64,000 bases of DNA. Origin: Porphyridium purpureum. Lineage: Eukaryota. Positions 12,420-59,063 of this stretch are shown here, one piece after another; the stretch's first letter is position 1, and the number at the start of each line of letters is the position of its first letter. Both the position numbers and the translations under genes were made by a program. The DNA is taken from positions 2,046,001 to 2,110,000 of the forward strand of contig VRMN01000003.1 in assembly GCA_008690995.1 (NCBI GenBank). Reading direction: 5' to 3'. A model generated the notes under the pieces. It was not told the DNA's origin. It did no database searches and worked only from the letters and a program-made list of their open reading frames with translations.

Positions 12420-15400
12420 TCAAGCCCACGCCGCCCACCCGTCAAACATGTGGGCCAGATTCTCTTCACTGACTGCGTCGCCTATGAGCGCACTGACATG
12501 GCTTTCAACCGACAGTACCGCGCTGCCGTCTTCAGTCAGGCCAGACAGCTTCTGGCTCACCTTGAGGATAGCTTGCGCGGCTGCGTCATTGCCCTTAATG
12601 AGGTCCCCGTAAGCGGGTCGGTGCGCTGCAGTGTCGGGCGAGTTGTCGCCATCGTCTTGACTCGCAGCAGCAGCAGCGTCGAACTGCTCGTGCTGGCGCG
12701 CATGCACGCCAAGATTCCAGCGAAACAGTGGATCGTGCAGCAGTACTGACAGGATGGTAAGGATTGAATCCTTGCGCTCACGCAGCACCTTCATACAACA
12801 TTCGGCAGAAATTCGCATCGTGCCGTGCACACCTTGTGCACCCATGCCGTCGACGAGGTCCCGCGTCAAGCGAAACGGTACGCGCTCTGGCGTCCGCAGC
12901 TGCTTTCCCTGCTCGAATGCTATGCCCAAGTCAATGTGGATCAGCTCGGCCGACGCCTTATCAATGAGGATGTTCGAGCAGTGCCGGTCTCCCAGCCCAA
13001 TAATATATCCAATCATGCTATTGGTTGCCATAGACCGAGTATAATCGCGGCGACGCTGCAGCCACACTGAAGAGCTTGCAAAGTTTTCGATGAAAAAGTG
13101 GCGCAGCACAGGCTGAAATCGCGCGCACACGTCACGGAATGCCTCCAGACGCTGCGGAGAACCAGCCGCGTGCGCACGCACCTTCATTCGACACTGAAGG
13201 TGCGTATAGTCATCGGGGCGGTACCTGCGGTGGGCGCTCCGCTGTTCATCTGCGAACAGCACCTCGGACAGCGTCATGGAATTATCCACCCACTGCATGA
13301 TTCCCGCACACGGACACAACGGTACGACGTGATACGTGCGCACGTTGAGCTTTCGCCGCGCCGACTCGTCGTCTGCACCAAGTAGCTCATTGACCAGCGC
13401 AAACAGCTGCTGCATTACAGCGTCCTGGCGAAGGTCGTCTTGGCCCTTGACTAGCTGCCGATACGCCACACCGTCAGAACCCACGCATATAATCAGCTTC
13501 GGGTGATTCACTCCCGGAAGAAGCTTTCCATGATCCTGGAACCCGCTGACCGAGACGAGCGCAGGAGCCAAGGATGTCCCTCTCTTCTGCGTGAGCTCAT
13601 CTACGGCACAGCACGGGACTTGCGCCCACTCTGCTGCGTTCTTGACAAAATCTATCACATAGCTCTCCCACGCGGCCTCCGCACCGTCACTCACCTTCGC
13701 GCAGCGCGCGGCAAGTGGCGAGGTCGCGGCAGAGTCGAACGACCACATGTCAAGCGCGAGCGTAGGAATGACTGTCTGGCGCAGATTCTTGAGCTTCCTA
13801 AAGGCAGGCACGGCATCAAACAGCGAAAATGAAGCGTCCTGCGGGTCAAAATGAGTGCATGATAGTGTATAATACGCATCGCTCAGAGCATCCAGCTGCT
13901 CAATATGGGCGCGCAAGGCCCGTCCGCAGTAACTCTGCAGATCGTCCATCAAGTTTTTGGCGGCTGCGACTTTGTCTGGGCGCACCATGTACTGACTCGC
14001 CCGGCGCAGGTCAGCGGGAACCTGGGCCCCTTTTGCAAGTGCCATGAGCTGCCAAAGGCAGTGGTGCGGATACAAGCGCGCCATTTCGGAAAGCACGTTC
14101 CGTAGCAGCGTCTGAAATCCATCATCATCTTCCAATCTGGCTGCATCAATGGCGTCACTAAAAGCATGCCGAAAGTTGCCTCTGCTGTTGGATGGTTGCT
14201 GCAAATGACTGGCCAGCTGATACACAAGAGGTATGAACATGCCCACAGGAAACATACATTCTGGTCGCTTCTGCTCTTCGCGCAGCGATTGACGTGGCGC
14301 TTTGGAGCTCTCCTTACGCAGGGCGTATGATTGGCCTTCATAGAGCATTTGTGAAATTTGTTCGTTGACCAAACGATTGTTGCGGTTCTCAAGCCATAAC
14401 CCGACGCTTCCGAAAACTGCGAGCACCCGCTGCTGCCTGGTCAGTTTGCCAAAGCGGAGAGACTCGAGCATGCCATGAATCGCCAACAAAAGCCACTGCG
14501 TGGCGTGTGTGCTTCTTGCTTGCTCAGCCGCAACGTCACGCCGCACTTGCGCCTCGAGTTCACGGATCGCAAGCTCACCACCTGCAGCACCACTCGATCC
14601 GCGTGGTTGCGTCAATCCCGCGCGTGGCCTGTGTGCGAGTCGCATGCGCTCCAGCTTGTCCGCGCGCTTTTTGCTTAAAGTGCGTCCCACGCGGTACTCG
14701 TCGCTGCCTGCGAACCGCTCTAAGAGTCGAAATTCGTCCATGGCGAATTTGCCCACATACAGCAAACACTCGCCGCGTGCACATTCAGCGAGCGTGTCGG
14801 ATGACGAAGATACGCATGACATCGGTCCCGAATGACGTTCCACTTCAGCCAGACCCAGACTGACAGCTTGAACAGCAGGGACCAGATAAGCCATGTAAAT
14901 TTGAAAGGCACTATTCTGAGCGCGCATACTGGCCAACCAGCTGGCGGCGAGTGTGCATGCCCGAGCACGCAGCAGCATGAGCCTACCCTGGTCATCATGC
15001 CAAGACTGCCGATGCTCTCGCTGCGTATCCCCAATCGGATCTGCACCGAGTCCTAGGTCCCATACCGAAGCGGGAGGCGAGCCGGCGCGAATTCCCACAG
15101 GAATGTCCGCCGGGCTGTTCGCACCCTTCATGGCTTGCGCAAGTACGTTACTCAATGATTTCGGCTCATCAGTGGCAATGCCATGAAGGCTGGGCTGTCT
15201 CTCGCCGATGGACGTGCCCTTGTAGCCGAGCATGTCATCTATGACGTGCCGAACTAGCGCAAGCGCCTCATTTTGAGTTCCGTCGGTCCACTGGAGAATG
15301 GCAAAAAGAGTGAGCCACTCTGCGCGGTCAATTTTGGCACACTCACGAAGAATGTGCGGGCGCTTCACAAAAGGCAACATCAGCAGCTGTCGCGCACGCC

Positions 15401-17034
15401 CTGCGTGCTCGGCATCGCGCACGCTAAACCCAGCGTGCCGACCAGGCTGCTGCTTCTTCTGCTCAAGAATGTTCACGTCAAGCAATAGCGACGCCGAGGC
15501 ACAGCTGGTAACAATTTGGGTCGGTGCATCGTCGAGAGCGCCAGCAAGTGCGAACAATCCCTGCGAGAAAAGCTGGGCATTTTCCAGAGCTCCTTTCTCG
15601 GCCAGCATGTTCGCGAGCGAAAGTTCCCGCCGGAAAAGCTCGGCTAACGGGTCTGGCGACGTGGTCGACACTCCTTGAGCCACGGATACGGCATCCGAAA
15701 CCAGGCTCGCGTTCTCCGCGAGCCGCTCACAAGACTCAAGCGTTCGGAGTGAAATGAGCGTTTGAGGTCCGGTACGGTGAACACATGCAGTGCCGGAACA
15801 GCTGCTGCTGCTGCCCAGAATCGCGTGTCGCGCCGCTACCAGCCATCGCCGCACCTTGTCAAATGACTGGCGATTGCGGACACTCGAAAGCGCGGCAAAC
15901 AGTGGCTCGGCGACCACACTTGAGGTATGGGATGCCATGGGCTCGTCTCCGCACGGAGCCGATTCAACCACGACTTCATTCGAAGGGTGAAGGTATGGCA
16001 GCGAAGGAATGGAAGGTACGCAAACCGAATCCCACTGCTGCATATTCAATGCATGCTGGAACCGCAGCTGGCGCCACTCCGATCCGAACCGAAGAAAGTC
16101 TAACCCATTCGTATCTGTCACTGCACCACTGATCGCAGTGCTGCTACTGCTGCTGTTGGTTACGTTACTTATCTCGTGTTCGAACAGTTGTCCAATCGTG
16201 CCGAACAGTCCCAGATGCTGCAGCGCAGAAATTTGCCGACCGAACCAATGTGAATTCGTGGCACGAGCGTTTCCACCTTCAGCCCAATATCTCTGTGTTA
16301 GCTGCAAGTCTATATCACGCAGGGCATGGAAACTCAATCCGCGCTCCAAATTCAAGTCTACGTCCTCACCCAGCATGCGCAAGGAGCGACCGAGGAGTGA
16401 CTCCACAGCAAGCTCATGCTCATCCTTCCCTGAGCACGTTTGCATGTCACTTGCGTGTGACGTTTTTAATTCGCACAGCCGGGCCACGAACGAAGCCTCG
16501 AAGTCTCGCTTAACAACTAGGACCCCGGCCAAGGAATCTGCATCTTGCAGCGCCCGACATGCTTCGCTGAGCGTCTTCCACGCTCGCTGATGCACCTTGT
16601 GGACGTTTCGTAGTTTCTCAGTGTATTTGTCAGCATCCATGTCTGTCATCATCTCGCTAGCTTCCCGGAGTGCGAGCTCGGCGTACAAAACGGCGTCTTC
16701 TGTGCGTCCACATCGAAGACATGTCCTCGCTACAAGTTCATACGGTATATCCAGCACGTAAGAATGAAGATGCGCGGTACCGCAGCCTTCAGCAGAGACA
16801 CTCCCTCCGGTGGCCAAGAGATCCGCTGCAGATTGCTCACACAGCCACGCACGGAATTGAGCGCCCACAAAATTGAGCATTTCGATCACGAGCACGCCGA
16901 TCGACGTATCCAACGAGTACGGTATGAAAGCGGAATCATGTGTCAATGTGTACGTACACAGGCGGCTCGACAGAATGGCAATAGTATTCATCACCAGCAT
17001 TCGCTGCTGCTTTTGTTGTTGTTGTTGTTGTTGT

Positions 17035-17068
<34 letters not shown>

Positions 17069-20000
17069 TACCTGACAGTGCTTGCGTGCCGCCGCTTGAG
17101 ACCGCGGTGGGATCGTAGCGTGGGCTCACGATCGCATTTAGAAGAAGAGGCAGCACGAGTCGTGCACGATCAGCGCTTAGATATTCGTGCTCAAGAAAAT
17201 GGGTCACAATAGGTTCCTGCCTGACGAAGCTGACATGCGCCAAGCTCCGTGCAAGCTGGACCACAAACCATTTCGAGTCGACCTCGAGTCCCCGCCACAA
17301 TGCGTCGTCTCCAATTCCATAAATTGTCAGCGGAGCTGTGCTGCCCTTTTGCACCAAAATGTCATCTGCGGAAGCGAAAGATGAATCCAAATCACATGCA
17401 GACCAAACAAGCCGACTGACAGACGCCGTGGCCTTGCTACTCGTACCAGCTGATGAGAGCGTGCGTTGAATCTTGCGCAGGCATTCATACGACGCACGGC
17501 CCATAGTCGCGCTGTGCCCAAATTGAATGTCGTACAGCAGCACGCGCACAAGCCGCAGCAGCGTGACGAACGTGGGGGAAACATTTTGAGTCAAATTCTG
17601 CATGAGCCTTGCAGTGCCGCCACGCTTACTCATGCCTACGCTTGATGCCGACACAACTGCACGCACGGCATTCTCGCGCAGATGCCGGTCTATGCCGCTG
17701 GGCAGTGCGAAGCACTCCTCAAAGGCGCGTACGTGCCGCGCATTGTTGCTCACTAGGTTTGCCTCACACATGCTGCTGGCGGCAAGGCTGCTGCATACGC
17801 GGTGCAGGCTCGTACGGAGTCTAGCACCAGCTTCGTCATCACCCGTGCGTGTCGCTAGGCACAACTCAAGCACGATACTCAACCACCGTTCTCCAAGGAT
17901 CGCATGCGATCCCCCAATGCCTACAACTAGGTCAGCCGTTTCTTTCCAGACATCAACCTCGTTCTTGTTTCGTCGTTGAGTTTCAACTGGTCCGCTAGGA
18001 CACACATGGCGTACAATTCTGTCGACAAGATGCCCCAGGACGTTCCGTGGACATGCAAGGCCCAACAAGAACAGTCTTACAGAGCTTGTCTCAAGTTCCG
18101 ATAAGCGCCGCGCCAGAACCGGGTGAGAAAGATGCTTCTGAAACGAAGAAGGCACTTCAGCGTCCGTCGTCACGTGGGCTTCTGCGGCAAACTCATCAAC
18201 AAACGCTTTCTTGTAGACACTGGAAACAGTCCGCGCGACATTCGACCCGGACAGAGCCAACAAGGGCAAATCAGCAAGACCAGCGGACAATGCTGTGGCT
18301 CGCATAGGATGCAAATCCTGCCTCGTTTCGTCGTCCGCACGGATACCAAGAATATCGTACTCCATCACGCGGGCGACGCTCGGCGTCAACTTTGGCCCCA
18401 ATTCACCCGCACTCGCCCAAGTATCTCGCGCGTCAAGAACACATTGCGCAATTGTCGTCAGCACCCAACGCTGCTCACCACGCAAAAACTTCTTCTGTTC
18501 TCCGTGGATTCTCCTTCGTGCCCGAACACGTGGACTGGTGTTTGAATCCTGATCGTCGCTCCGAAGCATGCAGAGCGTCGCTAACCTGAAAAAAAGGGTC
18601 ACTGCGACTGCTCGTGGATGCAGCATGCCGCTCTCAAGAACGGGTGCCTCCGAGAGAGTAGGCATGGCTCGACGAGATCCTGCTTTGCCTCGTGCGTCGC
18701 CTCTAGTCGAGCTAGCCGGGCGAACGTCGCCACCAAGCGCAGTACCGCGGCTGTCTTGTAAAATATTGTGCACGACAAGCAAGCTCGCCGCCGTGCTCAC
18801 CACGCAGGCGAATTCTGAGCTCGCGCAGAGCGCATCCCAAAGACTGAATAACCATGACACCATTGAGCCCCACAATACAGCTTCCGTGTCGAGGCCATCT
18901 GCGTTACTTTGGTGACGTGAAGTCAGACTCTCGCCGCTTTTTCCCGGTAAACATGCAGGTGTCTGAGCAAAGCTCCAAAGAGGCGGCGCCCCTGGCACAA
19001 CTTGAGTTCGAAGGAGCATCTCAGATGCCAGTGCAGGAGACAAACGACTTGCGCCGCAGCTGAACAGATGACCCTTGGTCTTTTCTGTCTCGAGCGAGGT
19101 CAAACGATTGGCCGCTAGACTCATAATATCTTCCTCAGTAGGCATCACACCAGTTATCGTATCAAGCCAGAGCCGCGCACGAGTATGGGTTGTGCCCATT
19201 AAGGCATCCAGCACGGGCTGAGTGTCACCCAAAAGAACAATGATTGCGTCAAAAGCCTTTGCAGCTCTTTGTACAAGCCAGAATGAGCCGCTGGGGTGCA
19301 ATGCCGTCGGTGCAGTCGTCGATATGGTCATGCTCTTTAGTAGCACTGCTACCTCTGCATGCTCACGCAAAAAGAAAATGACCGATTGCCTCAGTCCAAT
19401 GGCTCGTATTAAGTGAGCGAGGTGTCGCTCCAGCGCCCTTGCGAGTGCTGAAGCGTCCAGATCCTCACACTGGTCCCCACAAGCATGCAAAATTACCCAA
19501 GCCAAAGCGTGATGATCATACAAAGCGTGCCTTGTCAAGGTCTCGCTTGACAGCACACTGCCACGTTCCTTTTCCATGCGCAGCCCCGGTCCCGCGCTGC
19601 GATCATGTACCCATTCGAACTCGCCAGCTGGTGGCGCACCAATAGCACTCTCAGAGCCATTGCTTTTTGCGAGGGCGACACGATTGTCTCGCGCGGTACC
19701 CATTCTGTTTCCGCAGACATGCTCCGGAAAGTCGAGCGGGTCGTACACGTGTCTCGAAAGTCGCGTACAAAACAAAGCCAGCAACCGCTTGCGCTTCTGT
19801 TCCAGGAACGCTTGCACCGAAATGTAACCCAAGCGCGACGCGCCGTGGTGGAGATGTCGCACCAGCGATGAACGCAAAAATGCAGCTTCACCAATGCAAT
19901 GGCGTTCGATGCCCACGCAAGCATCTCCACAAATTACGCGCAAAACGCAAGACCACATTGAATCATACACCGAGGCCATCGTCTCAGATGTGAAAATCAG

Positions 20001-23000
20001 CCCGCTGAGCAGCATACGCGTGTAGCTTCCTGCGTAGCTAGTGATCATGGACCGGTTCCAATGCGAATGATGCGCTTGCTGGTCTGTCGCAGCGAGCCCG
20101 AGGTCAGCGTCCACGTCAAACAAGGCTTCGAAAACTCCGAGGTTTTGCAGGTGCAAAACGCCCAGTCGAGACCGGCCTGGTGCTAGCCAGAGGATTCCGT
20201 ATCGATCTCGCAGGTTGGTGTCTGGATCCAAGAATGGCTGTTGGACAAGAGCCGCAACCAGCACTGGTGTGCACAGGTCGTCTTGTACGCTTCTCTCTTC
20301 CTGTACATCGTTCTCCTGTCCACTGTGCTCAGAAGGAAGACCATCATCTATCTTGAACGCCCAACTGTGTGCTGGACCAAGAGCACCTACGAACATCAAC
20401 AGTGAGGGAAGCCGAGCATAACATCTTGCGCGAAAGGGGCGCGCAAGCTCGAGGAGCGGAAGCTCGTCCAGCTCACGCACAACTACACACACAAGTGCCT
20501 GAAGGTCGGCGTGCCAAACCTGTTTCACGCCTGTCGCTAAATTTGCCTCGGTGGCGGTCACCAGCAGCCCAACACAATCGAACAGAAGCTCAAACAAAGA
20601 GCACAGCTCGAGCTTGGCAAAACGCGTCAGCTTGGCAGCATTCTTGAGCGCATCAAACACATTTCGTCCAAGACGGCACAGCGAACTGACTGATATCTCC
20701 ATAGAGGCCGAGAATGCACTAATCCGTAGACTATGCATCCCTACACCATGCTCTGGCGTAACAGATACCAAAAGCAGACAAATGAGACGAAATACAGAAA
20801 ATCTTTGAAACCACGCATCGAGTCGATGCATGGCGTACGCTTCCGGTACGCGCCCATCTGGGAACGTTGCTGCTCGACGGAGCCATGCCTCGAACGTACG
20901 TGGCGCTTGCAACCATAAAAGCATGAACCAATCCAAGGTCCAGTCCACTGGAACGCAAGCGGACCAGTGCTCGAGAAGACGTGCACCTGCTGGCCAAGAC
21001 TCCCACTGCGGAGCAACTTGATGCGTGTAATCGAGAAACCCTGAAAACTCGAACAGGGCGCTTCCAAGCGGCGCAAGCCGATGGTTTGCCAGATCGTGAT
21101 CGCTGATCATTGAAGCAGCAAAATTACGCATGTCTGCAAGCTGGGTCAAAATAGCAGAATATCTTTCGTCAACCGACCGCACTCTCGAACGCCATGCATT
21201 TTCAGCATCCCCGATAGGACTAGGGGTGACAATGTCGTGCACGCCATCTACTTCAAAGCTCGTCATGCCACTCGATGCGTGTCCATCGTGCCCCGGTTTC
21301 ATACGCTTGCGGCTTTCGGCAGCCGCTGTTCCGCTTTGCTGACTCTGAATGCCCAAATCCGCTGCGGGACATCCCGCGCCCGACGCCGAGTTTAACGTCG
21401 GGCTCGATGCAGAACTCGAACCAAATGACAACAACGTAGTCCCAAGACATTGCTCATATAAAAGTTCACCATCAGCCATGACCAGAGCAGCAACATCGCG
21501 AAGCAGGGCTGTATAATTGACCCCACAAAATATGGCGCCAGACGCTGGGTTTGACAGCATTGAAAGCAGTACGGAAAGAAGCTGCGCGCCGTTGCCACGT
21601 GCGGCTCGTACGGCTCGAAGCCGGTTACTCTGCATTACGCCTTCGGCAACGCCTGCCGGAAAATTTATCCAGCCCCTCAGCGCACAGCCTAAAAGTACGA
21701 GATTGAATGACAGCACAAACTCGATCCGCGACCTTGATCGCAGTGAGGCAGCCCCAGTCCTCACAGCATTAGACATGTGCTCACAGGAAATGTTCTCATT
21801 AAGCAGAAATCTGGCGCGATACATCAGAGCAACACCAAGGCAGCTGCGCGCTACGAGGTCATCGACTGTCATGTGGAAATGAACGGCTAGGGACAAACCC
21901 TCCCCGCGGTCCTCAGTGGACGCGTCGCATGGATGAAGCTCACTCCTCCCGTCGGCAAGCAAATGATCTTTCTCATGTGCTCCCTCGCTCGCGCAACTCA
22001 GACGCGCTGAAAAAGAACCACAATTAATTGTCGCACAATCGCCGGCGCCCCACTCGACAATGCCCGATCTCGCACCGCACGCCCTGGCTCTTTTCGCCGG
22101 ACGGTCAGCAGGCTCCGCTTGCGGTCCGCTCGAGGCTACGGCTTGCGCTACACTTTTAAAAAGAGCCCTCCATTCATCAAGCGCTGGCATATGTTGTGCA
22201 TGCAGAAGCTGGGCTGAAAACAGAGCTAAATCGTTCGAACATGGTGAGTATTCGTTCGACGCGGAAGCGCCGCTTTCATGAAACTGAGGAAGAATGAAGC
22301 TGGTGTCATCTTCCTCTGCTGATATCGTCAAGAAAGGAGAGCTGCTTCCCAGTGCCGCCATGCAGCACGTGCTCATATCGCAATGGTCCAAAAGGCGCAC
22401 TTTGAGCGTATTGCTGTCACGTTCTGGTCTAGCTTCTGCGGTCCTCGGACAATGTTCACAGTGGAGACATGTGGACTTAAGCTCGCCGCAACGCTCTCTT
22501 GCACGATAGTCAGCCACGTATTCCTCTATACTCTCACGAACATCGCACATGGGTTCTTCTACTAGGGTCTCCGCGGAACTTGAATGCAAGCTACGCAGCA
22601 ACGCCGACGACCCGCCAGCCATATGTAAGAGCACACACGGCACCATGCATTTCGAATACGCGCCGCGGCCACTTGTGACCAGGTTTAAAAGTGCAAGGGC
22701 GCTCTGCACCGGCGCACAACGGTTGCAAGTGTCCGAGTGGACGAAAGTGGTCGGACAGAACCGATTCTGATTCCAGTTCAGATCATCGAACGTCTTGTCT
22801 GGGCCGGTCAGGGCCGACATTACCGATGACGCGGGCTGCGCTGCCTTGGTCTGGCCAGGCAACCAAGTGCAACCTCCAGAAATGGCGTCAGATTCTACTC
22901 CAGAGAGCATACTTGACCAAATTGCATTTGACAAACGCAAATCCACATTAGTACAGCTCGACGCTTGCGCGGCATTCCAGCGCAAAATCTCGCAAACAAG

Positions 23001-25670
23001 CGAACGCGATAGGTGATTGACTTTGCAGCGCTGAGTCAGCCAGCCGAGCACACTGGACGAGGTGTCAAGTGATGCGAATGAAAACGGCGAGTCAGATGGT
23101 TTGCATAAATTCACGCCAAAGCCAGTCGCCGAATCAAGTCCGTCTCGTACTGCCCACTCATTTCGATGATACAGCAGCGCCAGGAGCACAAGCTGCAGTA
23201 TTTGATGTTCATCGTGCTTCGCCTGCGGTTTAGAACTCGGAACGCAGGCGGCTGATGGCCACTCCACCTCTCGCGTGCTCTGTGACGCGCGAAGATGTGC
23301 GTCAGAAGTACTCGTCGCTGCTGTGAGCGTCACGCGCAGCGAAGCGTCTTGCGCGGTTGCAATTTCTGGGTGGCTCTTCGCTTGATACTCACTCCGCGCA
23401 CTTAATGCTACACATTCGCCCAGTGCGTGATCGATTTCAGCGCCCGTCAACAAGGCATGCAGTTCTTCAGCGTGCTTGTTTTCAGAGGATGATATACCAC
23501 AGGTCGTGTTCCAGAACACGTGCTCTGTTGCCAGCATGATAGATTCCAGAATGACAAACAAGCATGCGAGCTCCAAAGCCGTGCTTCTTGCATCGCCTCC
23601 GGCCACGTCGCGCGAGTGCTGACGCAGCAAAGATTGCGTGCCTCTGCGAGCATGCAGATGGTCAAGACGCCGTAGAGTACTTTGAAGCGCATATGTCGCT
23701 TGTACAAATTGACAGCCACCGGATGAAAGAACGCAGTACTTCAGACTCGGGTCGCGCACGCAGTAATTGCTCAGCATCCATGGCGCGGAGCGTGGGTGAA
23801 CACGCCACCGTTTCATGCTGCAGGCGGCCACGCGCAGCACGCGCGCAGCCGCAAGGTCGTCTGCCAAAAGTTCATGTTTCGTTTGCACCCAATCGCACAG
23901 TGTGCGGGGCGCAAAAAGAGCCGAACCCACTTGTTCTAAATCGTTCGTACATGCATTGAATGCATTCAATGAATTTACCAGGTCGAGAGGCGTCCGCCGA
24001 GTCAGCTTGTCCGCGACCACCTGCACAATCAGCGCACGGACTTTCCGCCATTGAGGATTCGATACATTCAGATCTAGCTGTAGGCGCTCACAGAAATCAT
24101 CCCGATATGTGTGCTGCGAGCCTGATACATGACCCATACTTATATCCGTGCCTGAGTGCAGCGGTGGCGCCAATAGTGCCTCGCATGACAAAAGGACGCC
24201 GAGGAATCTCGCACTCGGTTCCTCATACCGCTCGTCGAGAAGTAGTGTACATGCTACATGGCACGCAGCGATCCACAACGGGTGCATACAGACTACCGCT
24301 GCAGGTGCACTCCAACTTGCAGCCATACTATCTTCGGATGCCATCGCCGGCGCTCCTCTCGATGGTGTATCTCCGACGGCAATCGCGCGAGGCGCTCCGC
24401 CACTGGGCACCTTCCCAACCGCTGCGCAGCTTTCGCAATGGGCGATTGAGCCAAGCTGCGGGAGAAGGTCGCGTCCAAAGTTGCACATGCACGATTCCAA
24501 CACTTTCAGTATCGACGAAAATTCCTCACCGTATCGGTCGGCCGCCTTCTGGTCCTTGTAGACGCGAGGCCCACCGTGAAGTCCTAGTAAAACCTCGCAC
24601 TCTGCCAGCAAAATATACAGCGCATCGTCGGCTGCCGACTGCAGCTCATTCTGTCCTCTCGGTCGCGTTGAAGTCCCGCGATCCGCACGAGCGCTTTGCC
24701 GTAGTGAAGATGTCCGCTCGTCCTTGCCCGTTTCGGGGCCTTTCTTCAATTCATATGCATCTGATCTCTTTGGCTTCAAATGAGAAGCCACGTTCGTGCT
24801 CGAGGCCGTGTCCTCGGCCAGTTTGGGTACAACGCGAAGCACACCGTCCGCATCCGCAATGCAAGCTGGAAGGCACTCAAAAAGCTGGCACGCCAGTGTC
24901 CTGATGCCGCGACTGTACGCCACTTTCGTGCCCTGCGCGTCTGGATCGCTCGATTCCTTGGATCCGCCGAGGCAGAGCAACACTGAACAAAGCCAGGTCC
25001 ACCGCTTAAACAATCTTCTGCGCATGAGTGCTCGCACCGCGTGGCGGCGCATGAGCAGCAGGGCAGCGCCCCACAGCGTTCTGGCTAGTTTCTCAGGTAG
25101 AGGCGGCTCACCGTCCTCGCGAGGCTCGAGTAATCCACAGATCCGGCGCAACAGCGTTGTTCCACACTCTTCAATGCTTGCCCTGATGACATTCAGAACG
25201 TGGCGCTCCTCGCACATGCTTGCATGATGCTGTACGTCAGTCGGAGCAGGCGCCATTGTCAGTGATTGCGAAACCGGCGCTGGCCCGGACGCGGGAATGT
25301 TGAGCCACTTGAGCATGTTTCTGAGCTGCACTGCAACATCAGCGCGGAACACCGCACTACTGGCGTGCGTGGACTCGACGGCGTCCATCATCCCGAGCAC
25401 TGCAGCGCGCACTTGGATCGCAACCTCTTCGAGTTGCTTTTCTATCAGGTCTGGTGTGGCACACACGCGACGCCCACCGCATGCCTCGTCATCTGCGCGG
25501 TGCTCGCACATTGTACAGCCACTGACAAGGGTTTGGCTCAGCAACGACACATTCTGGCTGAGTCTGTCCACCAGCCGCGCGTGATCACTCCTGCTGCTGC
25601 CTGGACGCACGTGCAGCTGCTCCGCCTGCTGGCTGACCTTTCGCAGTGCGCGTCGCACGCGAGCGTCCAT
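12420..25670 (-). CDS. ATM: ATM/Tel1 PIKK-family Ser/Thr kinase
   Basis: Single ORF of about 4416 aa. C-terminal kinase (QLVKGQDDLRQDAVMQQLF, GYIIGLGDRHCSNILID, HIDLGIAFEQGKQLRTPERVPFRLTRD) and FATC (LAHMFDGWAAWA) are ATM-type. Confidence 0.92.
17013..17066 (-). repeat. CAG/CAA repeat encoding Q18 within ATM
   Basis: 18 consecutive Gln codons read directly. Confidence 0.95.
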
Positions 25671-26350
25671 GCTAACAATGGCGTCTTCATGCAACGCGTA
25701 ATCGCGTCAACCCGTTTGCTGTCAAATGCGAGGACGCGCTCGCGGCAACTGAAGGAAGGAACGCTCCCTCTCGTCGTCTTTGTGCAAGCGCATGGACCAT
25801 GTAGGGTTGCAAAACCGTTTCTTATCTAGCGGAGGCAAGAGGGGAGACGGCAAACAACGATGTTCAGGAGTCTGGCGATGGACGAGACAGAAACATACAT
25901 GGGGGACAGGCAGCAGTAGACCATCCTTGATACATTTGCTACTTTTATTCGAGAACAAGGCGGTTGAAGTAAACGTGCATTATTCGCAAGACTTTCATCC
26001 TCGCGCTTCAGCGTGGTGAAGGGCGTGACAACAGTTTGTTCCGAGCAATATCCACAAGAGGTAGACTTGAAAGCGAGGGAAGCGGCCGCTGCGGCCGCTC
26101 CACATTATATATTAGACTTTCCGTCTCTGTCGCGCAGCATCCCTATGGCACGAGGGAGGGACTGCTGCACTGGACGGATGAAAGTAACCAAATAAAGTAC
26201 AAAAACGGGCAGTGGCGTGACGGAAAGCCAAGACACGCGCAAACTGCTGTGAGCAGCCGCGGCATCGGATCCGTTCTAGCGTAATGCCAATAAGCGAGCG
26301 CGCTTCGCAGGGACGTTGAGACCTACCAGTCCCCTTGCCGGGTTATCGCT

Positions 26351-44378: not shown

Positions 44379-45143
44379 ATGAAGATGGCGGCGCCAAACT
44401 CACAGCTGGCCGGGCTCTATGCCATGAGTACCGTTGCGATACTATCGGCATGTTTGTTTGTGTACCCGCGCGGTCCGGACGGCGCCGACGCCGTTTTTGA
44501 CGCCGAACGCTCCGCGGCCTGGCTTGGCGTCGTGGCGCCAGGTCTCATGCGCGACTATGTCGCGGCGTGGGTGGCGATTGCGGCGCTCACAGGTATGCGT
44601 ATGGTGCTGGTAGGGACCTCGTTTGCGTCCGTCGCGATGCCGAGTGCAACTCGGATGCTGTACGAAGGCGGCGCTCTCTTTAGTTCGGCGGTTCTGGCAC
44701 TTGTGCGCGTCGTGATCTGCGAGACCCCGCACGATCTTGTGGCCAAGGGACGTGCGGCCGAGCCCATCTCGCGAGAGTGGCTTCTGGCTGCCTTGTCGCT
44801 GAACGTTTTTGCGACGTGGCTGTTTCAATTTTCGGTTTTACGCAGCAGCAGGGGGCAAAGCAGCGCCGCTACCCTGTCGGCTCAGCACGACTCGTCGCTC
44901 AGATACTCTCCCGGCACCATTCGACACGTAGCGTACCATGCCGCGTCGCTTGCGCTGGACGCGACAAACATAATGGCCGTGAATCCGGCGTGGTGGCCGA
45001 TGTGGGAGACTCAACTGGCCCCACTGTTTCCGTATCTGCTTGCCATCCGCGTCGCGTTTGACGCCGAGCGCCTTGTGCGCGGCACGATGTGGCTGGCTCT
45101 GTTGGATGCGGGTGATGGGAGCAGCAAATCGCAAAGCAAGTAA
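44379..45143 (+). CDS. Hypothetical multi-pass membrane protein
   Basis: About 254 aa with several hydrophobic helices; divergent from the 44234 gene. Confidence 0.6.
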   Translation: MKMAAPNSQLAGLYAMSTVAILSACLFVYPRGPDGADAVFDAERSAAWLGVVAPGLMRDYVAAWVAIAALTGMRMVLVGTSFASVAMPSATRMLYEGGALFSSAVLALVRVVICETPHDLVAKGRAAEPISREWLLAALSLNVFATWLFQFSVLRSSRGQSSAATLSAQHDSSLRYSPGTIRHVAYHAASLALDATNIMAVNPAWWPMWETQLAPLFPYLLAIRVAFDAERLVRGTMWLALLDAGDGSSKSQSK

Positions 45144-45219
45144 ACCGAACTTCCCTACCGCGGGCGGCAGCTTCTACACACACATCCTCATCAAGCCAAA
45201 AATTCTTGCCATGGGAGGC

Positions 45220-45224
45220 AAAAA
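45220..45224 (-). terminator. Pol III T5 terminator of permuted tRNA-Lys
   Basis: TTTTT 9 nt after the end of the 5' part. Confidence 0.7.
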
Positions 45225-45233
45225 GTTTTGCCA

Positions 45234-45334
45234 CTCGAACCCACGACCACCAGATTAAAAGTCTGGCGCTCTGACCAACTGAGCTAGGCAGGCATGAGGA
45301 ATCCGATGTGCTCGGTTTCTTACCCACCGTGGGG
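45234..45334 (-). tRNA. tRNA-Lys(UUU): Circularly permuted tRNA-Lys(UUU): 3' part (nt 60-73) at 45334-45321, 27-nt spacer, 5' part (nt 1-59) at 45293-45234
   Basis: The 5' part GCCTGCCTAGCTCAGTTGGTCAGAGCGCCAGACTTTTAATCTGGTGGTCGTGGGTTCGAG is not followed by a T-stem/acceptor 3' strand. The missing CCCCACGGTGGGTA lies upstream and completes the T-stem (GTGGG/CCCAC) and the acceptor stem. Confidence 0.92.
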
Positions 45335-45371
45335 ATTTCGTAAAATTAGGGTGAGTAGAGGAAAACTTAAA

Positions 45372-45381
45372 ATATATATAT
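45372..45381 (-). promoter_or_regulatory. TATA box upstream of permuted tRNA-Lys
   Basis: ATATATATAT in a GC-rich genome, about 40 nt upstream of the 3' part. Confidence 0.65.
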
Positions 45382-46077
45382 TTTGTATGTGGTTCAGGAG
45401 AACGTGGTTGGGAGGTACAGTGAACCCTGTGTTTTACGCCAAGGCATGAAAAACGGCTTGGTCCACGTGTGAAACGCACGCCAAGGGGAAGAGCGCGGCG
45501 AGTATGCCGGTGACGACAATGATAACGTTGTGCGCCTCGGCAGGCCTGCTTGTCGAAAAAATCCATCGCTGATCGGGTCCGTGTCTTTCTCTCCCAGAAT
45601 TTACCGTACACGTACAGAAAGATAAGCGTACAATTTTCATCGCACATCGCATGCGAATGTCATGAGAACCAGATGCGTCGACCAGTGCGCCGATGCCGTG
45701 TGCTATGTCACATGCCCATTGGCCTTATCCATATCCTCGGTCAGAGGCTCAAAGCTATGCTTGTCACGCTGTTCACCTTGCTTTCACACGCAATGAACGC
45801 GCGGTCCATGCTTGTCATAAACGAACCGTTTCCGTTCCATACAAGGTAGAAAAAATCAATGTGGGCACGTGCATCTGTTCTTTCATGCCATTCGTTTAGA
45901 TTCACGTGCAAGAAGTTGTGGATTATTGCTTGGTACTTCATCACGACAGAATCCACTCCAGACACTCAGCACTGAGCTTTGCAGCATTCAGCACGGGCGT
46001 TTCTCTAATGATATGTCTCATCTATACAGCCTTCTCGTTCACTCTTCCTGCGCATCGCCATTTCTATCCTGACGGCA

Positions 46078-47445
46078 TCACTTTTTATTCAGACGGCCTG
46101 AAGTCGCCTTGGCGATGAGCGCTTTTTCTTCCTCGGTCAGCACCATGTTCGCGCCGAAAGCCTCAAGCACAGCGAGCTGCTCGTTGACCATGTCTGGATC
46201 AAATTCTTCCAAAAGTTTGGTGTACATGATGGCCGTAAATCCGCCGTCGTTACGATGGGTGATGTCTGCGCCTCGCTCTAGCAAATAACGCACCATGCGC
46301 GTGCGGCAGCGCGCACATGCGGCCAGCAATGGAATTTGGTTCTGCTTGTCCTGCCACTTGTGATTAATTTCTACATTCTTAGTCTCGATGCACTCGATGA
46401 ACTTTTCCCAGTCGTCGTACCGGATGGCTGTGAGCAAGTTGAGGGCAGCGTTGTCCGTGTATTGCGGGATCATGTAAGACAGCGGTTCCTGAAAGCTGGG
46501 CTGAGCCCAGGTCTTGACAACAGCAGAGAGCATGAAGCTGAGCGAGCCACTTACTGCCGCGATCACGACTTCCTGTTCGGAAACATCGCCACTCGCCACG
46601 CGGCCCTCGTGCGTTAGCACGCTCCAGCCTTTCCCGTTTTGCGAGGCGTCACCGGCCGCCGGTCCACCGTACGCCGTGCAGTTGGCAAACTGCTGCTCGA
46701 TGCTTGCGCGCACGTGATCCGTGCGCGCACCGGGCGTGTGAGAGAACAAGAAGAACGTTACGTCGCCTGGGTCGCTCGACTTGATGTCCGTGACGGCTTC
46801 CTCTGCAGCCTGCAGTAGCGCTGCGTCTACGGCGGCTTGCATCGTTTCCCCAACCGTCGGGCTCACGCCCACAGTCTCGTCGTCAGACACGAGGTTGTCC
46901 TCGACGTCCTTCACATGTGCGCGGCCCCAGCCGATGGTGACGCCACTGCCGCCGGTGATCACCATCACCTCGACCTGCTCCGCGGTGTCCTTCTTGGTGA
47001 TGCTCCTCCCCAGCACGCGCGTGTGGTGCTCGGTATCGATTGCGCGCCACACCTGAGCTGGATCGAGGTTGAGCGTGTACGTGACGTGCACGAGCTCGCA
47101 GCTTGCGAGCTCGGACACTTGCGCGGACGCCATCGCGCGCTGCAGCGCTTTCGCACACGTCGCTTGCGAGTCTCCCGCGCACTCCTCCAACGTGGCGCGG
47201 CCGGTCCCGATCACCATCGGCTCCCCCGTGATCTTCTTCCCCAGCCCCATCTTCTGCTTGTAGTACTCCTCAATCCCTGGCGGGCCCTCTGAGAACGGGC
47301 TCTGAATCATGCTCACGCGTGTCGCGCGGCGCGTGCCGGGCGTGCTGACGGCCGGCGACGCCGCCACATGACTCGACCGCCCGTGCCTCCGTCGCGCACC
47401 ACGCGACCCAGCAACTTGTACCCCACCGCACACAAACGCGGCCAT
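46078..47445 (-). CDS. Putative plastid protein: FIST-N-like domain + C-terminal ankyrin repeats
   Basis: MAAFV transit-peptide start; FLFSHTPG...YGGPAAGD (FIST-like); IPLLAAC...MVRYLLERGADITHRNDGGFTAIMY (ankyrin). Confidence 0.72.
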   Translation of the reverse strand: MAAFVCGGVQVAGSRGARRRHGRSSHVAASPAVSTPGTRRATRVSMIQSPFSEGPPGIEEYYKQKMGLGKKITGEPMVIGTGRATLEECAGDSQATCAKALQRAMASAQVSELASCELVHVTYTLNLDPAQVWRAIDTEHHTRVLGRSITKKDTAEQVEVMVITGGSGVTIGWGRAHVKDVEDNLVSDDETVGVSPTVGETMQAAVDAALLQAAEEAVTDIKSSDPGDVTFFLFSHTPGARTDHVRASIEQQFANCTAYGGPAAGDASQNGKGWSVLTHEGRVASGDVSEQEVVIAAVSGSLSFMLSAVVKTWAQPSFQEPLSYMIPQYTDNAALNLLTAIRYDDWEKFIECIETKNVEINHKWQDKQNQIPLLAACARCRTRMVRYLLERGADITHRNDGGFTAIMYTKLLEEFDPDMVNEQLAVLEAFGANMVLTEEEKALIAKATSGRLNKK

Positions 47446-48387
47446 GTTCATGCACCCCACGATAACCCCAAAGCCACCACTGTCTCCTGCTCCAACAGCG
47501 CCTCTGCTTTCTTCTCCCGCTCCGCACCACACCAATCTGGGATCTTCCGGAAATGCTCTCCAGATTCGTCGATCCGGTCAAAAATACGAGCTGCATCCCC
47601 TCAAAACCCGGGACGAAAATCCCGCATGCGCGTAGTCTATTAAAACACCCGCGTCTGAGCACAAACTACGTACAGTCCGTTTGGGTACAGTTACGGGGCC
47701 GTCGAAGAACCGGAAGATTTTCCACCCGTGGGAAGCAACGAACCAAGGGACCAACGAACCCAGCGACCACGCGACCACAGGCGCTTCGGCTCGCTTCAGT
47801 CATCAAACACGAGAAGAGCAGGTTCGCTTCCCTCCTGACGATACATGCGCGCTTGCGGCGTTCCTCCGTTCCGCCGCTCCCACAGTCTCCTTTCCGCGTG
47901 TCAAGTAGCCATGCGTTCTGGATATCTCGTTCAACGATTCCTTATCGGTTCGGTTTAAGCGATGCTGATCCGTGACAAGAACACCTGCGGTATCGAGTGC
48001 ATCTGCCTCTTAGTGCGTGGCCCGAGGTGACGCGCCAGGTGGCTGGAGGAGAGGAACCGATGAAACGACCACCACCAACAGATATTGAAGTGAGCCGCGC
48101 GTGTGCGTGTCAGGGGCAGATTTTATATGTGAGAGGGCGAGAGGTTTGGATAGGAAAGGGGGGTTGGTGGAATTGGAGATTTGGAGTGAGGTGTACACCT
48201 GTGGGTGGCAGAGTGAGGCGCCGTGGCATGGAGTGAAAGTGGGGAAGCATGGCGGCGGAGTGATGGGGCATGAAAGGGAGGGGGAGGAGTCACGCGTGGG
48301 TGGGTGGGTGAGCCGGCCGGCTGGTGGGACGGCGGCTAGGGAGGTGGGTAGGTGGGCGCGGAGGGTTTGGTGCCGGGGGGAAAGGGA

Positions 48388-50706: not shown

Positions 50707-51711
50707 ATGATTCCGCTGTGGCTGATTCTGGGCACGGCCAGCACCGTGTTTGCGTGGTTTGTGTCATGCTACGAGATTCGGCAGCACCTGGCGCACTACT
50801 CGCGGCCAGACTTGCAGATGCATATTGTGCGCGTGCTCGGTATGGTGCCCGTGTACTCCAGTACCGCGCTGCTCTCGCTTTTTTTCAAGAACAACGAAAA
50901 GGTCGTGCTGATTCTCGACGTCATTCGCGACTCGTACGAGGCGTACGTCATTTATAATTTCCTGGTGCTCCTCATCAACTACGGGGGCGGCGAGAGGCAC
51001 CTCATTCACGCACTAGAATTGCAACCGCGTATGGAGCACCCATTCCCGCTCACCGAAGTCCTGCCGCCAATGAAACTGGGCACGGGCTTCATGTACTTTG
51101 TGCGCTCGGCTTGTCTGCAGTTTGTGTTTGTCAAGCCGGCGACTGCTGTGTTAGTGCTGTGTACCGCTCACCGCGGCTCTCAGCTACTGCGCAGCATTGT
51201 CCGTATCGCAGCAGTGCTCATCAACAACATGAGCGTCACCGTCGCGTTGTACGGCTTGTTGTGCTTTTACCATGCGGTCGAGAACGTGCTGCGGCCATAC
51301 AAGCCGCTACCCAAGTTTTTGTCCGTCAAGCTTGTCATTTTCCTCACATTTTGGCAGGGCATGGTGCTGTCACTGATGATCAAGCTGGGCATTCTTGTCG
51401 ACGTGGAGGGCTTTTCGGCCATGGAGCAGGCCAGCGGTTTGCAAGACTTGCTCATCTGCTTTGAGATGGCCGGCGCGGCGGTCATGCATTTGTTTGTTTT
51501 CAGTTGTCAGGAGGTGCTTGATTATCCAGACCTGCTTGGTATGAGCGACCTCTTTTCAGGCTACACGGACGAGGATAAGCGCCCGATTTTGCGCAACTTT
51601 GGCGACATTGTTGACTTTCGCGACGTGCTTTTTGACGCCAAGGCGAGCATATATGGCTCGTGCTTTGAGCGCGAGATGCACGAAAAGGGACCCGTCGAAC
51701 CGATTTTGTGA
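50707..51711 (+). CDS. TMEM184/OSTalpha (LAZ1-like) membrane protein
   Basis: IVRVLGMVPVY, IRDSYEAYVIYNF, LQFVFVKP, KFLSVKLVIFLTFWQG, LQDLLICFEM. Confidence 0.93.
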   Translation: MIPLWLILGTASTVFAWFVSCYEIRQHLAHYSRPDLQMHIVRVLGMVPVYSSTALLSLFFKNNEKVVLILDVIRDSYEAYVIYNFLVLLINYGGGERHLIHALELQPRMEHPFPLTEVLPPMKLGTGFMYFVRSACLQFVFVKPATAVLVLCTAHRGSQLLRSIVRIAAVLINNMSVTVALYGLLCFYHAVENVLRPYKPLPKFLSVKLVIFLTFWQGMVLSLMIKLGILVDVEGFSAMEQASGLQDLLICFEMAGAAVMHLFVFSCQEVLDYPDLLGMSDLFSGYTDEDKRPILRNFGDIVDFRDVLFDAKASIYGSCFEREMHEKGPVEPIL

Positions 51712-56545: not shown

Positions 56546-56738
56546 ACCCTCCCACACATAGGCATTTGGGTTGACAAAAAAATGAAACGAAGGGTCGATT
56601 CCCTCTCGAACCAGACCCGAACGAGTATTTCTCACTCCTTTCACGAGCTCAATCGATCTGGTCGAAGCGCGTTGGCAAAAGTTGAGCAAGTCTATAGGGA
56701 TATTGACCAATTTGGCTGCGTGCTTATCGCAGCGGGTG

Positions 56739-59063
56739 ATGGATTTGTTTTTGCTCTTTGCGTTTGTCCCACCCGGAGTTCCGCCGCCCGGTGCTCGAAA
56801 GGCGCAGAGTATTTCGGGAAGAACGGGGGTTTTGCGCGGAGGACGAGACCGCTCCCATCCATCTGCGGCGGTGCTGCGCCGTGCGACTGGGTTCCAACCG
56901 TCCTCGCCACAGAAAGGTCAGGGCAATGGGCGAGTACCGAATCAGCCCAATCCAGGCGACTCGGCGACAGCGCCCTCGGCTTCCTCTTCCGCACAGTCAC
57001 CGCCTGCTGGGCAGAACGCCGAGGGAGCCAGACGGGCCGCGAAGAAGAAATCGGAGCGTGGCCCAAAGAAGAAGAAAAACGCAGGCTCGCGCTCTTCTCC
57101 AGCGACGAAAGTCCAGCAGAAGGATCAGGACTTGTCGGCCATGCTCCAGGAAGATTTTGGTGTGCGCGTCCCGCATCGGCAAGACGGTGTCGAGTCTGAC
57201 CAAGTGCAAGAGCGAAGCATGTTTGGGCAACGCCTCGCGCGTTCACAGCAAATGCAGCAGGTGCAGCAAGCCCAGCCTGGGAGGAACATCGAGAATGCCG
57301 GCGAGGAAAAGGGAGAAGAATGGCTACCGGTTCCGGCACCGAGTTCGAGCTCGACATCGTCGGCTTCGCCTCCACCGTCTGCGTCACCAGGCATGCTGAC
57401 TCCGGGAGGCACGGGTGCACCGAGCATGCGAGCAGGAGATGCCGACGAGCAGCAGTTTGAGCGCGATCTTGGGCTGGCAGGACAGTATTCGAATCGATCA
57501 TCATTGCCGATGTCGACACAAGTGCCGCCTTATAACCTGCCGGATCCAGTTGTTGGCTCTGTTCCTGCGCCCGCTGGGTCGGCGGCCAGCCCGATGCCGG
57601 AAGTGGTTGACGTTAATGTGGTACCTGTTGGCTCGAACTATGCGATGGAGAGCAAGACTTTCGATGATATGCTGGACGAGCTGGCGATTCGCGCAGAGGC
57701 AACATCTGGCCGCTTGTTCCGCACGTCGGACCCACTGGTGTCGCAGGCGCTCGAGGAAGTATGGCATGATCGCGTGATGCACCAGAGGGATATTAAGGAC
57801 GGCATTCCCCAGTACGACGTTACTGGATCGCCCTTCCTGGACAGCTACACCATGGCATGCTCAGGATCGCTCTTCTTGGCGCAGTCTCGGCTTTACCGCG
57901 GCGTTGGCGTGATCATCACTCATAACTTTGGCGATTTTACCGTGCCGCTGCCGTCGCTGGATGAACTTGGCGACGGTGAGGAATTCGAGAGTCCTCAGAG
58001 CACGAGCGTGCGGCACTCGCTTGAGCAGTGGAGCCGGTGGAAGGCACATGCAGTTTATCTTGTGACGGGCCTTCCTTGCATCGCCGAAAGCACTGACTTT
58101 TGCGTCCCAGCGCAGCCGCAAATGCGGAATGATCGCGGCTTTTACGCACGCGTGTGGAACTCGGACATTGTTGAAAAGGCAGTGCAGCGATTCGGACCCG
58201 TGTCGCCACCAGAGCGTCGTGCGCGCTTCGAGAGCGTGGCCGTGTACTATGATGGCGAGACTGAGGTGGTGGGCAAAGGCGTCGTGGAGTGCGAGCTCGA
58301 GTTTATGAATCCGTCGCGGGCCATCATCGCCATGGCGTCTGCGTTAGACAACGTGTACAAGGTGTTGTACAAGCGGTTCTCGTTTGACCTGGCGTATTTT
58401 GATACGATCAGCCGCGATAACGAGATGCGTGATCTCCAGCAAACAACGATGACGGGCGCGACGTTTTTGAGGCAGCGCATCATGAACGAGGCCAAAGTGC
58501 TGCGCGACGGCATCCTCAAGGTGAGCAGCTTTTTGAACCACAAGGTGGACACGCGCCTGATGGACCTGTGCGGGCAGGAGCTCGCAGCGCGACTGCAGTC
58601 CACGCGCCCGAACAAGGTGCTGACTGTTGAGGCGACCGGACTGATTCCGGGCCTCACTGTTGCGCGCGTTCTGAACGTGCCCCTGGTGTTTGCGCGGAAG
58701 AGCCGGCCGATCTCGATCTCGGACTCGTACCAGACGACGTACCGCAGCGCGACCAAGGGTACCACGAGCGAGCTTGTGGTGAGCGAGGAGTACCTCGGTC
58801 CCAGCGACCGAGTCATCATTATCGACGACTTCCTTGCCGGCGGCAGCACGGTGGAGGCGTTGTTCAAGCTGGCCCGCATGGCGTCTGCGCGGGTGGTGGG
58901 CGTCGGCGTTCTCATTGAGAAAGTGTCCGACAGCGGCCGCACTGCTCTGAGCGGGTACGATGTGCCGATCATCAGCCTCGCGAAAGTGTCCAAGATAGAA
59001 GAAGGCCACGTCGAGGTGCTTGACGAGCCGCCATTCAACCGCATCGAACGCGTTGACGAGTAG
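56739..59063 (+). CDS. xpt: Xanthine phosphoribosyltransferase (Bacillus Xpt-like) fused to a long N-terminal region
   Basis: The last ~200 aa carry ILKVSSFLNHKVD, KVLTVEATG, VFARKS, DRVIIIDDFLAGG (PRPP loop) and GVLIEK. Confidence 0.85.
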   Translation: MDLFLLFAFVPPGVPPPGARKAQSISGRTGVLRGGRDRSHPSAAVLRRATGFQPSSPQKGQGNGRVPNQPNPGDSATAPSASSSAQSPPAGQNAEGARRAAKKKSERGPKKKKNAGSRSSPATKVQQKDQDLSAMLQEDFGVRVPHRQDGVESDQVQERSMFGQRLARSQQMQQVQQAQPGRNIENAGEEKGEEWLPVPAPSSSSTSSASPPPSASPGMLTPGGTGAPSMRAGDADEQQFERDLGLAGQYSNRSSLPMSTQVPPYNLPDPVVGSVPAPAGSAASPMPEVVDVNVVPVGSNYAMESKTFDDMLDELAIRAEATSGRLFRTSDPLVSQALEEVWHDRVMHQRDIKDGIPQYDVTGSPFLDSYTMACSGSLFLAQSRLYRGVGVIITHNFGDFTVPLPSLDELGDGEEFESPQSTSVRHSLEQWSRWKAHAVYLVTGLPCIAESTDFCVPAQPQMRNDRGFYARVWNSDIVEKAVQRFGPVSPPERRARFESVAVYYDGETEVVGKGVVECELEFMNPSRAIIAMASALDNVYKVLYKRFSFDLAYFDTISRDNEMRDLQQTTMTGATFLRQRIMNEAKVLRDGILKVSSFLNHKVDTRLMDLCGQELAARLQSTRPNKVLTVEATGLIPGLTVARVLNVPLVFARKSRPISISDSYQTTYRSATKGTTSELVVSEEYLGPSDRVIIIDDFLAGGSTVEALFKLARMASARVVGVGVLIEKVSDSGRTALSGYDVPIISLAKVSKIEEGHVEVLDEPPFNRIERVDE

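Follow-up and report, generated by a model that had tools for sequence, protein, structure and literature searches.

Does the broken tRNA-Lys(UUU) on the minus strand of this Porphyridium purpureum contig represent the remains of a gene, or a gene with its two parts encoded in reversed order? On this strand a 14-nt tRNA 3′ piece (45334-45321) precedes the 5′ piece (45293-45234), with a 27-nt spacer between them. Judging from the sequence and by analogy with Cyanidioschyzon merolae, we consider it about 85% probable that the locus is a functional permuted tRNA-Lys(UUU) gene that would be matured by the route used in that alga. All positions refer to the 64-kb window, the whole stretch of DNA analysed here.

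Layout of the locus and placement of its host

Read along the minus strand, the locus starts with a TATA element, TATATATA (45380-45373), 46 nt before the first exon base. It is likely to be an RNA polymerase III promoter, and the motif occurs only once within the window, at this site upstream of the tRNA pieces. The leader ends with CGAA (45340-45337), which pairs with T-loop positions 54-57 in a central 4-bp helix, and with AT (45336-45335), which together with position 60 makes up a 3-nt bulge; the predicted cut falls between 45335 and 45334. The 3′ exon (45334-45321) comprises tRNA positions 60-73, that is the 3′ strands of the T-stem and acceptor stem and the discriminator A73, and does not encode CCA. 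The intervening spacer (45320-45294) closes the acceptor stem, is predicted to form a hairpin and contains neither T-run nor TATA. The 5′ exon (45293-45234) comprises the D-arm, the anticodon TTT (45259-45257), the variable loop, the 5′ T-stem strand and the T-loop to G59, and its 60 nt cover positions 1-59 with one extra base in the D-loop. A second predicted cut follows 45234, and the trailer (45233-45220) ends in a T5 run (45224-45220) which, by analogy with C. merolae, is a likely polymerase III terminator. The preliminary description of this DNA had set out the same order of TATA, leader, two pieces, spacer and T run, and every element was found exactly where it had been placed on the minus strand.

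Two features of the type IV class of permuted tRNA genes are evident from this layout, namely a short intervening sequence (27 nt) without promoter or terminator, and a TATA-like element upstream combined with a T-stretch downstream. The spacers of known permuted tRNA genes span 1-74 nt in the accessible text of PMC3978253, and in C. merolae an upstream TATA within about 50 bp is typical of the permuted genes.

The window is eukaryotic, compact and intron-poor, with a GC content of 0.54-0.62 in 2-kb bins, compared with 0.559 reported for P. purpureum. The proteins encoded next to the gene are of red-algal affinity. The ankyrin protein encoded at 46078-47451 has its best match (48%) in a cluster that includes a Timspurckia protein, and a quick tree built from 21 of its 46 matches groups the two with an SH-aLRT of 99. 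With the orthologues in C. merolae and Cyanidiococcus the TMEM184-like protein (50707-51711) shares 42% identity. A 27-row tree joins it to two other proteins (99/98), outside the clade of Galdieria and Cyanidiales (98/95), and an AU test on 14 rows, picked after the first tree, rejects a grouping with Galdieria and Cyanidiales (p 0.0004). These protein trees place the host outside the Cyanidiophyceae, in the Porphyridiales. Timspurckia and Porphyridium are both members of the Porphyridiales, and neither is a hot-spring alga.

The other TATA-like window sites that were checked had no second broken tRNA nearby, and Rfam at E up to 10 found none either. ARAGORN reported a tRNA-SeC(tca) at 7497-7585 on the plus strand, antisense within a HAT-repeat/RRM ORF (5273-7654); this call has a poor D-arm, is not matched by Rfam at E up to 10 and is likely false. 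Elsewhere in the window, an uninterrupted minus-strand ORF of 4424 codons (12420-25694) with PI3/PI4-kinase and FATC domains is a PIKK-family gene, and a plus-strand ORF of 793 aa (56682-59063) with Ham1-like and phosphoribosyltransferase domains is a possible nucleotide-salvage fusion.

The rejoined tRNA and the source of its 3′ end

In genomic order ARAGORN found no tRNA at the locus, and Rfam RF00005 gave only a broken 33-bit match on the 5′ piece, which is how the preliminary description had expected a scanner to see it. When the two pieces were swapped, or the stretch was treated as a circle, ARAGORN reported a 74-nt tRNA-Lys(ttt). A further feature of type IV is that the 3′ part comes first on the strand shared with the 5′ part and that the two together rebuild a cloverleaf. 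The stems of the rejoined tRNA are free of mismatches, each of the 21 pairs being Watson-Crick or G-U, and the invariant tRNA bases are intact. Three acceptor pairs are G-U (1-72, 4-69 and 5-68), a caveat already attached to the locus. The claim of a permuted tRNA-Lys(UUU) is upheld by the swapped or circular call, by the uniqueness of the 3′ piece and by its advantage over every tested alternative.

If the locus were a truncated pseudo-tRNA, its upstream piece would be a chance match, and both the broken tRNA seen by scanners and the shortness of a 14-nt piece are in keeping with this. Shuffling the 120 nt that precede the 5′ piece by dinucleotides, however, gave such a 3′ piece in only 1 of 20,000 cases, and in none of 20,000 when CGAA was required in place; the chance of the upstream piece amounts to about 1e-4 per 100 positions, or about 5e-7 with CGAA. 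Under a strict rule (five Watson-Crick T-stem pairs plus seven acceptor pairs, with at most three G-U), 45334 was the only match among 127,962 window positions, which represent both strands, while a looser rule with G-U allowed anywhere found 12 pairs at six window positions. The match to natural Lys(UUU) 3′ ends is a test independent of pairing. The upstream piece agrees with positions 60-73 of the colinear gene L072 at 13 of 14 nt, the sole 13/14 match in the window. Compared with L111 (12/14) it is the sole best and with L097 (12/14) it is tied for best, and compared with L053 (10/14) it is beaten by two window sites at 12. Some room for chance is suggested by two weaker look-alikes downstream, with 10 and 11 of 12 pairs, since joining the latter yields a fold of -25.9 kcal/mol versus -26.2 kcal/mol for the upstream piece. 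Against the shuffles and the independent match to L072, the pseudo-tRNA reading is highly improbable and close to refuted.

Both look-alikes lie on the minus strand. The one with 11 of 12 pairs (45165-45152) is located just past the stop of a plus-strand gene, is expected by chance at about 1% within 100 nt and is probably a chance match. It was rejected as a 3′ exon on account of G60 and G72, each present in 0 of 90 relatives among the matches listed, its location beyond two T5 runs and its lack of a junction helix. The look-alike with 10 of 12 pairs, followed by A and T5, is found at 45216-45203 (to 45198 with a second T5), and is probably not an exon. The preliminary description, accurate as to layout, had been silent on this look-alike, on the placement of the host and on the Lys(TTT) precedent in C. 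merolae.

With 45216-45203 as the 3′ exon, the gene would be colinear, its T-loop interrupted by an intron of 17 nt (45233-45217) comparable to those in Chondrus and C. merolae. By criteria set post hoc this piece, with nine Watson-Crick pairs and one G-U, A73 and an adjacent T5, occurs once in the window, and the 17-nt insert can form a 6-bp hairpin. A minus-strand Lys(TTT) call of just this span, 91 nt, stands without a pseudogene flag in the accessible part of a tRNAscan-SE table for P. purpureum (PMC10496412), and Lys(TTT) calls of 85-92 nt are listed there for other red algae. The colinear product would, however, have acceptor mismatches at 1:72 and 3:70, seen in 0 of 90 relatives among the matches listed, and its 3′ piece is identical to L072 at only 8 of 14 nt. 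Its cloverleaf reaches -19.9 kcal/mol versus -26.2 kcal/mol for the permuted one, and its pairs have a probability of 0.00 in the precursor. Neither downstream candidate restores T-stem and acceptor stem together, as the piece at 45216 leaves these two mismatches and that at 45165 sets G1 against G72 beyond two T5 runs. Nor does CGAA precede either candidate to form a junction helix with the T-loop, and T5 lies inside the supposed intron. ‘No H’ introns do exist in C. merolae, as far as the available literature describes them, so that the helix test alone is not decisive, and the profile scores differ by a small gap only, with 62.2 bits for the upstream join versus 60.7 and 58.2 bits for the downstream joins.

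The look-alike at 45216-45203 is explained as the second unit of a two-unit local repeat (45238-45195, minus strand) with a period of 22 nt and 16 of 22 positions identical, each unit of which ends in T5; the units can pair as hairpins. Taken with the mismatches, this makes a colinear gene quite improbable, and if the 91-nt call corresponds to this locus, the scanner appears to have read it as a colinear gene and assigned a wrong 3′ end. A decayed outer exon left at 45216-45203 by duplication and loss was likewise rejected, both because the repeat explains the piece and because its Watson-Crick bases 68-69 are unlike those of the nearest listed genes. The repeat at 45195-45238 also overlaps the 3′ end of a convergent mRNA, and may represent a duplicated terminator.

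Colinear Lys(UUU) genes with the same T-arm were collected from viral and prokaryotic contigs, yielding at least 126 matches at no fewer than 123 loci; at least 125 were parsed and at least 90 were distinct. These are phage, giant-virus and bacterial genes and none is red-algal. The closest among the matches listed are eukaryote-type genes without CCA, and the core of the 5′ exon is identical at 38 of 38 nt to L064, L073 and L122. These three and L072, L111 and L053, the closest colinear relatives among the matches listed, are located on viral contigs, several of them in giant-virus bins. No permuted gene was found among the matches listed for the at least 125 parsed relatives. A type IV Lys pattern gave six matches in metagenome contigs, all colinear and of bacterial type with no orthologue, and none in viral contigs, and a pattern for the 5′ piece gave three bacterial matches in genome contigs, again with no orthologue.

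The relatives also put the G-U pairs in perspective. G1-U72 is present in 19 of the 90 distinct relatives among the matches listed, and G5-U68 is common to L072, L111, L097 and the P. purpureum locus. Two acceptor G-U pairs occur in 14 of these 90 and three in none, and 17 tRNA genes of C. merolae have at most one each, as read by eye from the accessible Fig. S1 of PMC3728597. Compared with L072 the acceptor stem shows three changes, each of which keeps a pair, and at the level of sequence such pairing-preserving changes look like drift under selection.

Predicted processing and expression

Precursors with a 5′ end at 45345 or 45352 and a 3′ end at either the first or the second T run gave, when folded without constraint, pair probabilities of 0.90-0.96 for the permuted acceptor stem, and with these starts 0.92-0.98 for the T-stem and 0.71-0.86 for the helix between leader CGAA and T-loop positions 54-57. 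The predicted precursor leaves a 3-nt bulge beside the T-stem, and its trailer side has no outer helix of the strict BHB. A junction of this kind had been proposed, and the fold bears it out: the leader helix and the bulge form without constraint, and the outer helix thought to be weak is absent in register on the trailer side. This relaxed BHB of the predicted fold, made up of T-stem, 3-nt bulge and 4-bp helix without outer helix, is a type IV feature. So is the junction 59/60, which is set here by the geometry of the bulge and by the G59/C60 of the closest colinear gene among the matches listed. Since ARAGORN alone accepts all nine of the registers tried, the exact cut is a prediction. The P. 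purpureum locus thus has all five sequence-level features of the type IV class.

The D-arm is absent from the lowest-energy precursor fold, which has a z of -2.3. The spacer hairpin (-6.7 kcal/mol, z -2.8) was matched in stability by 4 of 200 shuffles and is predicted to sit on the acceptor stem. A start at 45360 lowers the predicted T-stem to 0.4 and the junction helix to 0.09-0.24, and read-through to 45140 removes the permuted pairs from the predicted fold; the model therefore needs termination at the T runs.

By analogy with C. merolae as described in the accessible text of PMC3978253, polymerase III would transcribe the gene from the TATA element into a linear precursor, in which the leader is predicted to pair with the T-loop and to leave the 3-nt bulge beside the T-stem. 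A splicing endonuclease would then cleave at the 59/60 junction and the cut pieces would be ligated into a circle, to be opened by RNase P and tRNase Z before CCA is added. One may also imagine that the precursor is trimmed at both ends and stays unligated at 59/60, as a two-piece, nicked tRNA reminiscent of two-piece tmRNA. The relaxed junction without outer helix would fit such a product, and ligation at this locus is itself predicted by analogy. Yet ligation by way of a circle is what has been seen in the algal permuted tRNAs examined to date, and a T-loop nick would disrupt the elbow recognised by RNase P and tRNase Z (both from the accessible text of PMC3978253), so that we regard a nicked tRNA as the least probable of the readings, extremely so.

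Reads were available from three raw runs of 2026, of which about 20-25% of each was read and all of which behave as mRNA libraries. In all three no read covered 45252-45377 and neither joint nor loose end was seen, and in all five mRNA-type contig runs the contigs stop short of the tRNA gene; libraries of this type are uninformative for tRNA. The mRNA-type reads end on both sides, in a plus-strand gene (44379-45143) and in a minus-strand transcript ending near 45400, and this gap between two convergent mRNA 3′ ends places the tRNA gene in intergenic rather than coding sequence. The overlapping ORFs 45255-45647 and 44899-45327 were rejected as genes, with no Pfam match and no reads across the tRNA gene. 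Same-species reads differ from the window at eight flank positions within 45050-45539, with mixed alleles in some runs, which is strain or haplotype variation.

AAA codons make up 140 of 14,126 codons in 16 window ORFs, and a CUU tRNA cannot read AAA. The permuted layout could nevertheless be real and the gene decaying or redundant, with another locus supplying tRNA-Lys(UUU). Its three acceptor G-U pairs exceed those of any of the 90 relatives among the matches listed, the mRNA-type runs give no expression support, and the accessible part of the P. purpureum table (PMC10496412) contains another Lys(TTT) call, 219 nt long; the present locus may thus not be the sole source of tRNA-Lys(UUU). That call, however, is a putative tRNA from a table, and decay is at odds with the faultless pairing and with the invariant bases, TATA, junction helix and T run, all of which are intact. 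Pairing also survives each of the acceptor changes relative to L072, which points to selection. A decaying or redundant gene is accordingly an unlikely reading, and a functional permuted gene is preferred.

Known permuted genes and the ancestry of the layout

A permuted tRNA-Lys(UUU) was reportedly found in C. merolae 10D by Soma et al. in 2007. In the accessible text of PMC3978253 C. merolae has 11 permuted genes, and Lys(TTT), with a 38-bp spacer, is one of three of type IV; its 3′ piece is 14 nt long (PMC3218864, in the part available). The P. purpureum locus shares with this gene the anticodon, the 59/60 junction and the 14-nt 3′ piece (same sources), as well as the upstream TATA, the downstream T run, the lack of an intron and the lack of an encoded CCA. 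The proposal that 59/60 is a junction class in C. merolae is thereby correct for the anticodon UUU itself. The two differ in spacer length (27 versus 38 nt) and in the class of the host, in a comparison made by features in the accessible published tables and not by exon sequence.

Further type IV genes, Ala(UGC) and Arg(CCU) of C. merolae and iMet and Tyr of Thermofilum pendens, resemble the locus in the 59/60 junction and the leader/trailer BHB-type motif (accessible parts of PMC3978253 and PMC3218864), but have other anticodons, and the T. pendens genes encode CCA and contain a 37/38 intron. In the type II genes of green algae and chlorarachniophyte nucleomorphs (PMC3978253) and in the permuted genes of Auxenochlorella the 3′ half also comes first, as far as the available descriptions go. 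In contrast to P. purpureum, the type II genes in the accessible Table 1 of PMC3978253 are almost all split at 37/38. Chondrus crispus has T-loop introns at 58/59 (PlantRNA 2.0, which covers two rhodophytes) and shares red-algal BHB-type processing in the T-loop, but unlike the P. purpureum gene its genes are colinear with a true intron. The sources available report C. crispus to be without permuted tRNA genes, and the accessible main text of a 2026 review mentions neither Porphyridium nor Galdieria. In the literature searched no report was found of permuted tRNAs in Porphyridium or in red algae beyond C. merolae; subscription papers, tRNA databases and supplements may hold one. Within this literature the layout is known, and a second red-algal class sharing anticodon and junction is new. 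The position 37/38 is the site measured by the ordinary eukaryotic endonuclease.

Published scans bear on how widespread the layout is, as far as the tables in PMC10496412 are available. The P. purpureum scan (Table S4d) has 30 rows, many above 100 nt, and none for Asn, Asp, Cys, His, Thr or Trp; many more disrupted tRNA genes probably await annotation in this alga. Lys(TTT) of C. merolae and Cyanidiococcus is flagged as pseudogenes of 66 and 75 nt, as expected for a permuted gene, which suggests that Cyanidiococcus shares the permuted Lys(TTT). In the 30 of 38 Lys rows at hand, Galdieria, Chondrus and two Gracilaria species have unflagged Lys(TTT) calls of 85-92 nt, which look like colinear, intron-bearing genes.

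That the 59/60 permutation of Lys(UUU) was one ancient event, inherited by Cyanidioschyzon and the Porphyridiales from the last common red-algal ancestor, is possible but rather doubtful. In favour of shared ancestry, type IV accounts for three of the 42 anticodons in C. merolae, so that independent events would match the anticodon by chance in about 7% of cases, and the P. purpureum case suggests that colinear calls can be wrong. Under a single origin, Galdieria, Chondrus and Gracilaria could have the permuted gene too, with some of their 85-92-nt calls being erroneous colinear readings of it. With these colinear-looking calls taken at face value, a single origin would need several reversals, and two rearrangements of an ancestral Lys(UUU) gene with a T-loop intron may be simpler.

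An anticodon and junction shared across the deepest split of the red algae mean that the layout may be older, or may arise more repeatedly, than has been assumed. Either the red algae had the permutation from the start, or an ancestral T-loop intron of Lys(UUU) was rearranged twice, and this question can be tested at one locus across red-algal genomes. With the P. purpureum gene, permutation is no longer tied to life in hot acid, and the gene implies that the Porphyridiales have an endonuclease able to cut the T-loop. If the single origin is true, this would be the first permuted tRNA gene conserved across classes.
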